The notes under the pieces are model-generated. The model was not told where the DNA came from. It searched no databases and was given only the letters and a program-made list of their open reading frames with translations. From Escherichia coli (GTDB lineage Bacteria > Pseudomonadota > Gammaproteobacteria > Enterobacterales > Enterobacteriaceae): a DNA stretch of 64,000 nt. The translations under genes and the position numbers were made by a program. Location of the stretch: assembly GCF_016903815.1 (NCBI RefSeq), contig NZ_CP069972.1, one strand, 5' to 3'. Below, one piece after another: positions 18,076 through 39,396 of the stretch (position 1 is its first letter; each line of letters opens with the position of its first letter).

Positions 18076-18386
18076 GGAGGAGCGAAGCTCCTTCTGCCGT
18101 CCGGGTCTTCGGGGATTTCCCCGCAGTGGACCTTTCCGACGGGGGACGCTCACCACGTCACGGGGCAGTTGTCCGGGGGCAGACGCAAAAGTTTTTGACG
18201 CCTGCGGCAAAAAGTTTTGTGGCTGGTACATCTCTCCCCTGGACGACTGAAACGGGATGTGGTCATGTATGTACCCCCGGAAAGTCCGTCTGCGGAGAAC
18301 AGGCCGCAGTGCGGCGGCAGACAGGCAGAGACAGCTGCGCCATCAGGCGCAGTGGCCTTACACACCGTAAGGTGTGCAGGGAGCGC
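18076..18386 (-). promoter_or_regulatory. Family-1 hairpin repeat, copy A (ssDNA-promoter-like, Frpo/ssi-type)
   Basis: Shares about 300 bp with 21469-21964 and 27812-28310, including inverted arms CCCCGCAGTGGACCTTTCC / GGAAAGTCC(A/G)...GGGG and TTGACGC...GCGGCAAAAAGTTTTGTGG. Confidence 0.6.
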
Positions 18387-18501
18387 CGCATACGGCGCGA
18401 CTGAAGAAAAACGACGGCACAACAATGGCATGTGGTGGTCACTGGCACACCACTCCCGCACAGGTGAAAACAGAGAAAACCGCACGACATTTACAACCAA
18501 A

Positions 18502-18856: not shown

Positions 18857-18886
18857 GCGTGATTCACAGCCTGGCTGAATGCCAGG

Positions 18887-19069
18887 CTACTGCTCATCAG
18901 GAAACAGCTTTTTCAGTTCTTCACCGGAAAGTCCCGTGACCTCCTGAATCCGTTCCAGCGGCCAGCCTATATCCCGAAGCCGGCAGGCTATTTCCCGCGC
19001 CACTTCAAGAGCCCCTTGTTTAAAACCCTCGTCGAAACCTTTCTGTATAAGACGTTCTGCAATCGTCAT
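18887..19069 (-). CDS. Stand-alone RpnS-like small protein (60 aa), homolog of the Rpn C-terminal domain
   Basis: MTIAERLIQKGFDEGFKQGALEVAREIACRL...TGLSGEELKK aligns with the last 65 aa of the adjacent Rpn; own SD AGGAG; the longer 81-aa ORF would be encoded through the rpn terminator hairpin. Confidence 0.5.
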   Translation of the reverse strand: MTIAERLIQKGFDEGFKQGALEVAREIACRLRDIGWPLERIQEVTGLSGEELKKLFPDEQ

Positions 19070-19092
19070 GCTGTTTGCTCTGCTCCTGCTGA

Positions 19093-19119
19093 CAAAAAAG
19101 CCCGGCATTTTGCCGGGCT
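19093..19119 (-). terminator. Intrinsic terminator after rpn
   Basis: Minus-strand hairpin AGCCCGGC-loop-GCCGGGCT followed by U6. Confidence 0.5.
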
Positions 19120-19131
19120 TTGTGGTTCTCA

Positions 19132-19329
19132 TCAGTGAGTGATTTTCTTCAGTTCGTCATCGGAAAGTCCGGTAGCCTGCTTAATCTGCTCCGGCGTCAT
19201 CCCCATTTTCTGAAGCTGGCACGCAATAGCCAGGGCTTTTTCAAGCGCTCCTTCCATGCGTCCTTCCATGCGTCCTTCCATCCTGCCTTCCTGGCGACCT
19301 TTTTGCTCAAGACGTTCTGCGATAGTCAT
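19132..19329 (-). CDS. Possible intragenic RpnS-like ORF (in-frame internal start, 65 aa)
   Basis: In-frame ATG at 19329 preceded by GAGGAT at -6 to -11 (CATGAGGATAAACTGATG); product corresponds to the Rpn C-terminal domain. Confidence 0.3.
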   Translation of the reverse strand: MTIAERLEQKGRQEGRMEGRMEGRMEGALEKALAIACQLQKMGMTPEQIKQATGLSDDELKKITH

Positions 19330-20058
19330 CAGTTTATCCTCATGCTGCGGCAGACGCTCAGCCAGCGCCCGCATAAATTCCGGTGATACAGAGTCCCCTG
19401 CGTTAACGATGTAATGAATCAGAACACGCACCTGCTCGTCTGAAATTTCCACCATGACCTGCGGGAGTTTGTCCAGCAGCTCCATCATGTCACGATGGCG
19501 GATATGCTTCATCAGCAGCGTCAGTGCGGCCATCCGGCGATGGTTCATGATTTCATTGTCATCAACGACAGTGATATCAACCAGCGGAAACGGCTTTGTG
19601 TATATTTTAGCCGCAAGTGCCGGATTCTCAAAACAGTCCAGCCAGTTCATGCTGTACGGGTACGGGCTGCGCTCACCGTGATAGAACAGCACCGGAATCA
19701 CCAGTGGCAACGTTTTGTGCTGCTCCAGATGTCTCTGCATCGCCGCCACACTGTAGCGTAACATGCGAAAAGGCATGTACAGATTTTCTGTGCTCTGGTG
19801 CTCGATGAGCGTATAAACATAACCATCTTCACCCCCGGTGGTTTTCACGCTCCAGAGGATATCGCTGGCGTACTGATGCAGGTCCGGCTCAACAAAGGTG
19901 GCGGGTTCCAGCTTCAGCGTGGACAGGTCGCACAACTGCCGGTACTCCGCAGGAAGATGCAGTTCCAGAAAATCCCTGGCAACGTCGGGATTCGCCAGGA
20001 ACGACCGGAACGCGGCATCATGCGGCGTGGGCGTTGTGGTGTTTTTCTTCTTACTCAC
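19132..20058 (-). CDS. Rpn family recombination-promoting nuclease (YhgA-like, PDDEXK), 308 aa
   Basis: YhgA-like N-terminal region (LIEHQS...) and conserved C-terminal domain (IAERLEQKG...TGLSDDELKK); GTG start overlapping the stop of the upstream ORF. Confidence 0.6.
   Translation of the reverse strand: MSKKKNTTTPTPHDAAFRSFLANPDVARDFLELHLPAEYRQLCDLSTLKLEPATFVEPDLHQYASDILWSVKTTGGEDGYVYTLIEHQSTENLYMPFRMLRYSVAAMQRHLEQHKTLPLVIPVLFYHGERSPYPYSMNWLDCFENPALAAKIYTKPFPLVDITVVDDNEIMNHRRMAALTLLMKHIRHRDMMELLDKLPQVMVEISDEQVRVLIHYIVNAGDSVSPEFMRALAERLPQHEDKLMTIAERLEQKGRQEGRMEGRMEGRMEGALEKALAIACQLQKMGMTPEQIKQATGLSDDELKKITH
19249..19284. repeat. 12-bp tandem repeat x3 inside rpn (encodes EGRMEGRMEGRM)
   Basis: TCCTTCCATGCG repeated twice plus variant TCCTTCCATCCT; in frame. 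Confidence 0.6.
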
Positions 20059-20444
20059 GGTTCCTCCATCAAATCAGCAGCATCGCAGCAATCATCGCCC
20101 AAATCCCCACAACCGAGAGGACAGCAATTGCGTTCAAAGCCATGACAACAATAGCCGCGTTCTGAGTCACGGCGTATTTCTTCAGCAATCTCTTCTGCGG
20201 AAAGGTAATCAAACTCCTCACGGGCCAGTTCCAGGACCAGTAGATGTTGTTCTGTCGGCAATGTGGCCACAAAATTATCAATAGCAGCACTCAAACGTCG
20301 CTGATATAGCTCATAAACAAGACCACAACGGGGCATTAGTTCTTCGGATAATAGTTCCAGTTTTGAGCGAATTCTGTCAGCGTTGAAAGTGACTTCATCA
20401 AAAGACATATGAAAAGCTTTGTCAGTATCAAAACAAGACTTCAT
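20055..20444 (-). CDS. Hypothetical protein with Cys-rich acidic C-terminus (129 aa), coupled to rpn
   Basis: ATG at 20444 with SD GGAGA; C-terminal CCHGFERNCCPLGCGDLGDDCCD; stop TGA overlaps rpn GTG start (GTGA). Confidence 0.45.
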   Translation of the reverse strand: MKSCFDTDKAFHMSFDEVTFNADRIRSKLELLSEELMPRCGLVYELYQRRLSAAIDNFVATLPTEQHLLVLELAREEFDYLSAEEIAEEIRRDSERGYCCHGFERNCCPLGCGDLGDDCCDAADLMEEP

Positions 20445-20620
20445 TGTTATCTCCAGCCCTCCCGGGCCCTGAATGAAAGAGAATCTGTTTCCCTTTTCTG
20501 TTTTTTGTGGAGACACCATGCAACACAGACGTCGTGATGTTTTTCATCTTGCTCACGGTTCCTCCTGGTAAAGTACCTGAACACATCCTGCCACCTGCAC
20601 AGGCAGACGGCAGGGGTTAA

Positions 20621-21468: not shown

Positions 21469-21964
21469 GAGGGGCGAAAGCCCCTTCTGCCGTCCACTTC
21501 TTCGGGGTTTCTCCCCGCAGTGGACCTTTCCGATGGGGCAGCGACTGCCACGGCACGGGGCAGTTGTCCGGGGGCAGACGCAAAAGTTTTTGACGCTTGC
21601 GGCAAAAAGTTTTGTGGCTGGTACATCTCTCCCCTGGACGGCTGAAACGTGTTGTGGCCGCTTCAGCCCCCGGAAAGTCCACAGCGGGGAAACAGGCCGC
21701 AGGGGGGGCGGCGGAAGGGCAGACAACTGCGCCATCAGGCGCAGTTTCCTTACACACCGTCAGGTGTGCAGGGAGCGCAGGTCACGGCGCGACAGAGGCG
21801 GCGCGACCGGAACGGTCGCTGCAAGCCTGGTTTTTCAGACATCGGACCGTAGCGGCAGCCCGAAACCGCGCCAGCGGGTTCGGCGGAGACTGGCGGGTGC
21901 GCCAGCAGCTGCCTGTCGGAGTCGGGCCTGACGACCGGATGCCGCCAGGCAGCCGGGAGCCGAA
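21469..21964 (-). promoter_or_regulatory. Family-1 hairpin repeat, copy B
   Basis: About 500 bp shared with copy C and about 300 bp with copy A; long imperfect inverted repeats. Confidence 0.6.
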
Positions 21965-38202: not shown

Positions 38203-38276
38203 TTGTTATCCTGTTATCCTGCTATCTTGTTATCTTGTTATCTTGTTATCTTGTTATCTTGTTATCTTGTTATCTT
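38203..38276. repeat. Array of about nine tandem 8-bp TTGTTATC repeats upstream of parA (centromere-like)
   Basis: Direct reading; followed by imperfect palindromes (TTAACAACTTGCTAAGTTGTTAA). Confidence 0.65.
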
Positions 38277-38400: not shown

Positions 38401-39027
38401 ATGATAATAGTATTAGGTAGTCAAAAGGGTGGGGTAGGTAAAAGTACACTGGCGGTATCTATAGCTGCGTATCTGATGTCACTAGGCAATAGAGTGATTA
38501 TTGTCGACGCAGATGACCAGAAATCAGTATTAACCTGGTACAACAATCGCCCTGAAGATCTCCCTCATATTCCGGTTACAGGCGCGACAGGTAACATCAA
38601 AGCCATGTTAAAGGAACACGAAAAATCCTATGATTTTGTTATTGCAGACTGTGCTGGCCGTGATAGCGCAGAAATGCGTAGTGGATTGATGGCCGCAGAT
38701 GTATTCATTTCTCCTTTGCGCCCATCTCAGATGGACCTGGATGTTGTGCCTCATACATGCTCCGTTTTTACAGCAGCAAAAGATTTTAATGAGGATGTTC
38801 GGGGATATCTCGTTTTAAACATGACGCCCACAAATATGTTTGTTAATGAAGCCAATGAGGCAGCTGAAGTACTTAAGGATTACCCTGAAATGCATCTGGC
38901 AAACTCCCGGGTATGTGATCGTAAAGCACATCGAGATGCTTGGGCCGAATCAATGACAATTTTTGAAACGCAAAATGATAAAGCCCAGCAAGAAATCGAA
39001 GCGTTAGTGAAAGAGGTTATTCTGTGA
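38401..39027 (+). CDS. parA: ParA-family partition ATPase (208 aa)
   Basis: Deviant Walker A GSQKGGVGKST. Confidence 0.75.
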   Translation: MIIVLGSQKGGVGKSTLAVSIAAYLMSLGNRVIIVDADDQKSVLTWYNNRPEDLPHIPVTGATGNIKAMLKEHEKSYDFVIADCAGRDSAEMRSGLMAADVFISPLRPSQMDLDVVPHTCSVFTAAKDFNEDVRGYLVLNMTPTNMFVNEANEAAEVLKDYPEMHLANSRVCDRKAHRDAWAESMTIFETQNDKAQQEIEALVKEVIL

Positions 39028-39326
39028 GAAATAGAGCAAACACTTCACCTCGTGACGAGGCAGCATTTATTAACGGTGGCACGGCTGGCCTTGATAATAC
39101 CAAAAAGTCATCAGATAAATCATCGGTTGTAAGCAAAGCAAAACCAGTGAGTATTTCTTTTTTTGAAGAAAACCTAAAAGACATTGATGCCCTTATAACG
39201 GCTGAGATGGTTTCAGGTAAAGGCAGAGTGAATCGTTCTGATGTTGTCAGGGCGGCGGTAGAAGCACTTAAAACACTATCAAAAACAGAGGTATCACGAT
39301 TGATAGCAGAAGTAAAACAAAGATAA
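39024..39326 (+). CDS. Small centromere-binding partner of ParA (100 aa)
   Basis: Overlaps parA stop; small basic protein; flanked by repeat arrays. Confidence 0.5.
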   Translation: MRNRANTSPRDEAAFINGGTAGLDNTKKSSDKSSVVSKAKPVSISFFEENLKDIDALITAEMVSGKGRVNRSDVVRAAVEALKTLSKTEVSRLIAEVKQR

Positions 39327-39330
39327 CACC

Positions 39331-39396
39331 TTGTTATCTTGTTATCTTGTTATCTTGTTATCTTGTTATCTTGTTATCTTGTTATCTTGTTATCTT
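39331..39396. repeat. Second array of about eight tandem TTGTTATC repeats downstream of the par genes
   Basis: Same 8-bp unit as 38203-38276. Confidence 0.65.

Follow-up and report, generated by a model that had tools for sequence, protein, structure and literature searches.

The closest described relatives of the locus considered here are the rpn genes, which encode a toxic nuclease, RpnL, together with an antitoxin, RpnS, that is started internally within the same gene, at M244 in the case of RpnA (Zhong et al. 2023 PNAS, PMC10400941). Toxicity has been reported for RpnA, RpnB, and RpnP2, and the last of these, a plasmid Rpn of ECOR13, protects against T-even phages (PMC10400941). The region shared by the two products contains four-residue repeats (a single hydrophobic residue combined with charged residues or Gly), which begin 8-20 residues after the internal Met and whose number is hypervariable within species; a published structure, together with models, puts the point of repeat insertion in helix 1, at the RpnS dimer interface (PMC10400941). 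In RpnC, repeat copy number decides which RpnS neutralizes which RpnL, and one repeat added to RpnC-S abolishes neutralization of RpnC-L unless both proteins carry it (PMC10400941). The DNA units were named "dodecamer repeats," the mechanism of their expansion being left open by the authors, with a published suggestion that it is driven by RpnL itself, and stand-alone copies of the small module, rpnSs, were found downstream of some rpn genes (PMC10400941). The same points are summarized in a commentary (PMC10400984).

Two other kinds of system invite comparison. In the TAEL repeats of HsdS (EcoR124I/EcoR124II), a parallel cited by the Rpn authors (PMC10400941), the number of tetrads in a helix likewise changes specificity, but there it acts through the spacing of DNA half-sites in type I restriction, whereas in Rpn it concerns the pairing of toxin and antitoxin. 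Simple-sequence contingency loci also carry a slippage-mutable tandem repeat within a coding region; the Rpn unit, in contrast, is a multiple of three, so that its gain or loss gives allelic length variation rather than on/off switching.

The window analyzed here is a stretch of 64,000 nucleotides from Escherichia coli (contig NZ_CP069972.1), and it contains an rpn gene with a 12-bp tandem tract. The tract is the four-amino-acid repeat already described for the Rpn family in 2023, a new example and nothing new in kind, and the features of the description by Zhong et al. 2023 that can be read from sequence, namely a candidate internal start with a ribosome-binding site and four-residue repeats of variable number soon after it, are present at this locus. 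We think it very likely that this tract belongs to an Rpn toxin-antitoxin gene-within-a-gene and represents its hypervariable four-amino-acid ("dodecamer") repeat; none of the four alternatives weighed below fits as well. Like the known Rpn-LS systems (RpnA-E, RpnP2), the gene shows this domain architecture, together with a putative internal start that has its own ribosome-binding site, Met244 numbered as in RpnA, variable four-residue repeats near that Met, and a stand-alone rpnSs copy downstream. Judged against the RpnA model, it belongs to a different clade; its tetrads are RMEG, not KGIE and the like, and the plasmids that carry it, in their leading region, are of the IncI complex.

In the mechanism that we favor, RpnL is a PD-(D/E)XK nuclease, and initiation at Met244 should yield a 65-aa RpnS that is the same C-terminal three-helix domain and would bind RpnL via this shared domain. 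Slipped-strand mispairing or unequal exchange would add or remove perfect 12-nt units (GGA CGC ATG GAA), with helix 1 growing or shrinking by four residues at each step. In the geometry of an alpha-helix, one tetrad amounts to ~6 Å, or one turn plus 40 degrees. Toxin and antitoxin would change simultaneously and, because they share these codons, the pair encoded in cis would stay matched after each change in copy number, so that self-neutralization would be kept; pairing specificity toward Rpn modules with other repeat numbers would be reset. The sequences themselves show the anatomy of the gene, the in-frame variation, and the recurrence of that variation. We infer the translation of RpnS, the toxicity of RpnL, and the role of repeat number in specificity by homology to RpnA, RpnC, and RpnP2, the published specificity experiment having used RpnC with KGIE repeats, not the RMEG type.

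The rpn gene, its plasmid, and the repeat tract

RpnL has an N-terminal PD-(D/E)XK YhgA-like nuclease domain followed by a C-terminal HTH_Rpn_C domain (coordinates of all features are given in Table 1). Pfam PF04754 matches residues 11-207 (E=1.6e-78), and TIGR01784 covers residues 12-306 with 180.4 bits against a cutoff of 52.1, which places the protein in the Rpn family. Residues D66, E86, and Q88 are invariant in an alignment of 40 homologs. The small C-terminal domain is represented by PF27070 (HTH_Rpn_C), which is precomputed on a protein 98% identical to RpnL; searching RpnL itself against our local Pfam copy gave no PF27070 match. The equivalog model for RpnA, NF007361, scored 320.7 bits where its cutoff is 583, and we therefore rejected identity with RpnA and regard the protein as a member of the Rpn family. 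None of the PADLOC models (PADLOC-DB v2) recognizes it, and a PDB search with full-length RpnL matched nothing relevant. Searches with the small domain gave strong PDB scores to designed PPR/repeat proteins, which were disregarded because they contained no single significant stretch.

The 1221-nt query spanning 18880-20100 of the window is 100% identical to NZ_CP024254.1, a plasmid of E. coli ATCC 43886; this is an IncK2/Z conjugative plasmid, and the gene is annotated there as Rpn family. The nikA/nikB (mobA/relaxase) end is ~2.5 kb away from the gene, which lies in a block with ardA and psiA and is co-oriented with them; the gene is unmentioned in a paper on early-conjugation transcriptomes. 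Upstream, an ORF on the minus strand (20055-20519) shares 4 nt with the start of rpn. Its annotated product has 129 aa, and the longest ORF has 154 aa with a Cys-rich C terminus; its position is occupied in other plasmids by a different, 88-aa gene.

Tandem Repeats Finder reports the tract at 19249-19281 with period 12, 2.8 copies, 100% matches, a score of 66, and the unit TCCTTCCATGCG; the interval amounts to 2.75 perfect copies of this unit. Two units are complete and perfect (19249-19272). The third, TCCTTCCATCCT (19273-19284), has 2 of 12 bases changed and is synonymous, with AGG in place of CGC, both encoding Arg, and the fourth, GCCTTCCTGGCG (19285-19296), is degenerate (repeat family D2). 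Read on the coding (minus) strand, the array runs GGT CGC CAG GAA, GGC AGG ATG GAA, GGA CGC ATG GAA, GGA CGC ATG GAA, GGA GCG, which translates as G-RQEG-RMEG-RMEG-RMEG-A, residues 254-271 of the 308-aa ORF. A chance origin of the repeat is excluded: its 21 consecutive lag-12 self-matches form the sole lag-12 run of at least 12 in the 64-kb window, and in shuffled controls (n=200) the longest such run averaged 7.9 and reached a maximum of 12. The sequence-only reading of this DNA had pointed to a tandem repeat of 12 bp, in frame, toward the C terminus of Rpn, with two perfect units plus a variant copy encoding EGRM repeats. Tandem Repeats Finder and the ORF translation bear this out, and the units and the variant copy are where it had put them; EGRM is the same repeat as RMEG in another register, in frame.

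Table 1. Features of the rpn-rpnSs region, with positions in the window
Feature	Position	Strand	Basis or remark
rpn, full-length product RpnL, 308 aa, GTG start	19132-20058	minus	PF04754, TIGR01784, ORF list
Promoter-like site inside rpn	19604-19631	minus	TTGAGA-16-TAAAAT, 10/12 matches; ~275 nt upstream of internal start
Putative RpnS translation start, Met244	19327-19341	minus	GAGGA (19341-19337), 7-nt spacer, ATG (19329-19327)
Putative intragenic antitoxin gene rpnS, 65 aa	19132-19329	minus	In rpnL frame; homology to RpnA-S, PF27070
Four-tetrad array RQEG-RMEG-RMEG-RMEG	19249-19296	minus	Residues 255-270; copy number 0-6 in relatives
Three RMEG units of the array	19249-19284	minus	Span given in the sequence-only reading
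Intrinsic-terminator-like hairpin plus T-run, AAAGCCCGGCAAAAUGCCGGGCUUUUUUG	19094-19121	minus	Between rpn stop codon and rpnSs Met
rpnSs-like small-domain gene, 60 aa from conserved MTIAERL Met (ATG 19069)	18887-19069	minus	Homology to RpnS
Second, independent tetrad array in rpnSs, FDEG-FKQG, 2 copies	19013-19036	minus	0 to 6 copies in relatives

Variation of repeat number among related plasmids

A 251-nt query across the repeat was searched in a plasmid collection and in 5426 complete E. coli genomes. It matched 1640 plasmid records in the former and, in the latter, 1246 records belonging to 1180 of the 5426 genomes; the region is almost always plasmid-borne, with 1272 of 1287 matching places in the E. 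coli genomes lying on plasmids. Matches from the plasmid collection are mostly on conjugative plasmids, and all those fetched belong to the IncI complex (IncI1/B/O, IncI-gamma/K1, IncK2/Z). Length classes were counted among 60 evenly spaced matches for each search (Table 2).

Table 2. Length of the match to the 251-nt query among 60 evenly spaced matches per search (1640 plasmid records; 1246 E. coli records)
Match length	Difference from window	Plasmids	E. coli genomes
215 nt	-36	12	14
227 nt	-24	12	15
239 nt	-12	13	9
251 nt	0	10	10
263 nt	+12	5	4
275 nt	+24	0	1

The length difference from the window is a multiple of 12 nt in 105 of the 107 full-length matches of the two spread samples. The other two are a frameshifted copy with several indels on a 12.4-kb linear record (L009) and a locus in which an extra module is inserted (L010). 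An assembly artefact was rejected as the source of this variation, the same length classes recurring in thousands of complete records.

The loci that we fetched form a series, QKG-[RQEG][RMEG]n-ALEKA, whose members have 0 to 6 tetrads altogether in otherwise near-identical genes. In DNA terms, CGCCAGGA(A/G)GGC and AGGATGGAAGGA stay constant, and the perfect CGCATGGAAGGA units after them number 0 to 4; two SNP backgrounds share the same unit counts, and there is a 2-copy allele of a second kind. Such variation within one species (0-6 copies among E. coli plasmids) is what Zhong et al. 2023 describe for the family. The sequence-only reading had likewise suggested that repeat number could vary between isolates, with invariance across homologs as the outcome that would speak against it; the alleles compared carry 0, 1, 2, 3, 4, 5, or 6 tetrads in near-identical genes. 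Distant homologs all have tetrads of the G-x-x-E/Q type, in variable number and at the same place.

Different repeat counts are found on N-terminal domains that are only 1-3 nt apart in 729: a 3-copy and a 2-copy allele differ there by 1 nt, and a 0-copy and a 4-copy allele by 2 nt. Similarly, an identical RpnSs protein can stand next to an rpn gene with 1, 3, or 5 tetrads, or with 2, 3, 4, or 5. Because near-identical N-terminal domains and identical RpnSs proteins accompany differing counts, the sequences indicate recurrent local gain and loss of 12-nt units, most simply by slippage or unequal exchange.

One can envision that such gain and loss is no more than a neutral slippage polymorphism, the helix tolerating any length and copy number drifting without consequence. 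This alternative draws on the observations that the 1- to 4-copy classes are all common (~15-25% each in the spread samples) with no dominant allele, and that the zero-copy allele occurs in intact genes. We nevertheless consider it unlikely. In RpnC, a mismatch by a single repeat abolishes antitoxin activity (PMC10400941), the same kind of array is kept and is variable across the family, distant homologs included, and both arrays of one locus stay strictly in frame.

Recombination or gene conversion among RpnS-type modules might also be the main source of the variation, with tails being swapped rather than units slipping locally. The means for this are present: the 5′ and 3′ ends of rpnSs and rpnS form direct DNA repeats (19026-19069/19286-19329 and 18909-19017/19145-19253) that are 72-75% identical, and at three loci (L010, L020, and L072) the same N-terminal domain is joined to an IQxG-type tail. 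As the main source, tail swapping seems rather improbable to us, given that rpnSs is built of FxxG units and lacks the expanding unit CGCATGGAAGGA, so that the rpnSs module cannot donate RMEG units; furthermore, a constant flank bearing anywhere from 0 to 4 units is the signature of local gain and loss. Since some allele differences extend to the rest of the tail (L008 versus L016), recombination does contribute alongside slippage.

Position of the repeat within the putative antitoxin

Met244 is preceded by CATGAGGATAAACTG, with the GAGGA and 7-nt spacer listed in Table 1. The region comprising the Shine-Dalgarno sequence and the start, CATGAGGATAAACTGATG, is identical across the loci compared, and M244 is nearly invariant among the 40 homologs. 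By sequence, a candidate internal start with a ribosome-binding site is present at the onset of the C-terminal domain, as described by Zhong et al. 2023. The first tetrad comes 11 residues after Met244, and the repeats start at residue 12 of RpnS, within the published range of 8-20 residues.

The putative RpnS was compared with the RpnA-S crystal structure (7TH0). The zero-repeat RpnS allele has the same length as 7TH0_A, 49 aa, and aligns with it without gaps, 1-45 to 1-45 (E=4.6e-6). The window allele, in contrast, has 16 additional residues in helix 1, and its 4-repeat RpnS (65 aa) is shifted by exactly 16 residues in the alignment, with low similarity (E=0.032 with the repeats). AlphaFold2, run with the 40-sequence alignment (mean pLDDT 74), predicts one long unbroken helix, residues 237-284, passing through the repeats and followed by two short helices; the mean pLDDT of 10-residue blocks over residues 251-270 is 74-78. 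Because the repeats begin downstream of the internal start Met244, they lie inside RpnS and, judging from sequence and model, in the first helix of the small C-terminal domain.

This position bears on the view, taken by the sequence-only reading, that the repeats are a flexible linker joining the nuclease body to the RpnS-like domain, its length tuning the balance of toxin and antitoxin. The array does separate the large, conserved N-terminal domain from the part of the C-terminal domain that is most conserved. It is located downstream of the internal start, however, and so belongs to RpnS; it is predicted to be helical and continuous with the flanking helix, the zero-repeat allele is collinear with 7TH0_A, and published work places the insertion in helix 1, where it meets the dimer interface (PMC10400941). 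The idea of tuning a balance is imprecise as well: since RpnL and RpnS are encoded by shared codons, a change in copy number alters both proteins together and leaves their stoichiometry unaltered, and what the RpnC experiment shows is pairing specificity, not dosage (PMC10400941). A linker seems very improbable and is already contradicted by the position of Met244. That the tract is a phase-variable on/off switch, as perfect tandem copies within a gene from a defense-type system might suggest, has almost no chance of being right and was rejected, because the 12-nt unit keeps the frame at each step, all scored natural variants are multiples of 12 (105 of 107 sampled), the changes of frame or promoter spacing expected of a contingency locus were not found, and the sole frameshifted copy is the 12.4-kb linear record with several indels (L009).

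Within rpn, the promoter-like site listed in Table 1 is the only match in the region; shuffled sequences average 1.7 matches, which puts it at no more than chance expectation. On this weak evidence, the site could be an internal promoter of the kind reported for rpn genes.

The downstream rpnSs module and other elements of the window

The product of the stand-alone module is 51% identical to RpnS, and positions 215-273 of TIGR01784 match it (E=1e-7). The module is present in 97 of 97 scorable related loci. In the annotation it is an 81-aa hypothetical protein starting at 19132, with a TGATG overlap with rpn at 19130-19134. Because a strong terminator-like hairpin separates the rpn stop codon from the rpnSs Met, this ORF probably over-extends the gene, the real product being the 60-aa protein from ATG 19069. 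The 81-nt stretch 19060-19140 has a predicted minimum free energy of -28.9 kcal/mol (z=-4.07), and none of 200 shuffles folds as well; a consensus scan did not list the hairpin.

At two loci (L010 and L072), an extra stand-alone module is found between rpn and the usual small gene, with a tail of the RQEG/RMEG type in L010. In such arrangements, the small-domain modules behave like exchangeable, stackable cassettes.

The second module carries its own tetrad array, and we compared the copy numbers of the two arrays in 97 loci (the window and L002-L098, without the unscorable L009). Next to otherwise identical partners, the rpn and rpnSs arrays change copy number independently of each other. Equal counts were found in 0 of 22 spread-sampled plasmids, our least biased sample (permutation P=0.044), and in 1 of the 97 loci, L089 (3,3); of 24 observed count combinations, 1 is on the diagonal. 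The combinations (2,2) and (4,4) are absent among the 97 loci although both marginals are common, and synthetic queries for (2,2) and (4,4) gave no exact-length top match among 2011 records, an outcome that is subject to ranking. The two counts are anticorrelated, with rho=-0.66 over 17 loci, weakening to -0.38 to -0.44 over unique combinations. A stricter statement, that equal repeat numbers never occur, held for 57 loci and was then broken by L089.

We imagine that selection might keep the rpnS and rpnSs arrays at unequal copy numbers, making the downstream module orthogonal to its own RpnL and RpnS, but we would not bet on this reading. Because sampling was biased, the later loci having been chosen by allele, and because the plasmids are related and hence non-independent, the rarity of equal counts is a weak, unproven hint. 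If true, rpnSs might serve as a spare cassette for switching of tails, or it might be an antitoxin against another Rpn toxin, for example in recipients, as the leading-region block enters first. Possible avoidance of equal counts between the two modules is the only reading here with some novelty, the repeat itself being already known.

Alleles with 0-6 repeats on almost identical proteins, beside a second variable module, provide a natural series for the study of a specificity code based on repeat number. The two arrays could also serve as a cheap two-locus length marker in plasmid epidemiology.

Two other sets of repeats were seen in the window. Direct repeats of ~250 nt (18153-18404 and 21548-21796), 76-95% identical and 3.39 kb apart, bracket the HTH-rpnSs-rpn block. 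Folded as single-stranded DNA, the plus strand across the first of them (18120-18415) forms a long predicted hairpin (MFE -86.8 kcal/mol, z=-8.4), reminiscent, we assume, of the single-strand promoter or initiation elements in plasmid leading regions. Elsewhere, two arrays with an 8-bp unit (TTGTTATC), at 38203-38276 and 39330-39396 and with 9.2 and 8.4 copies, flank a gene for a ParA-family ATPase (38401-39027) and a small ORF downstream of it (39024-39326). These arrays look like the centromere-type iterons of a partition system, and they may vary too, as match lengths differ in other plasmids.
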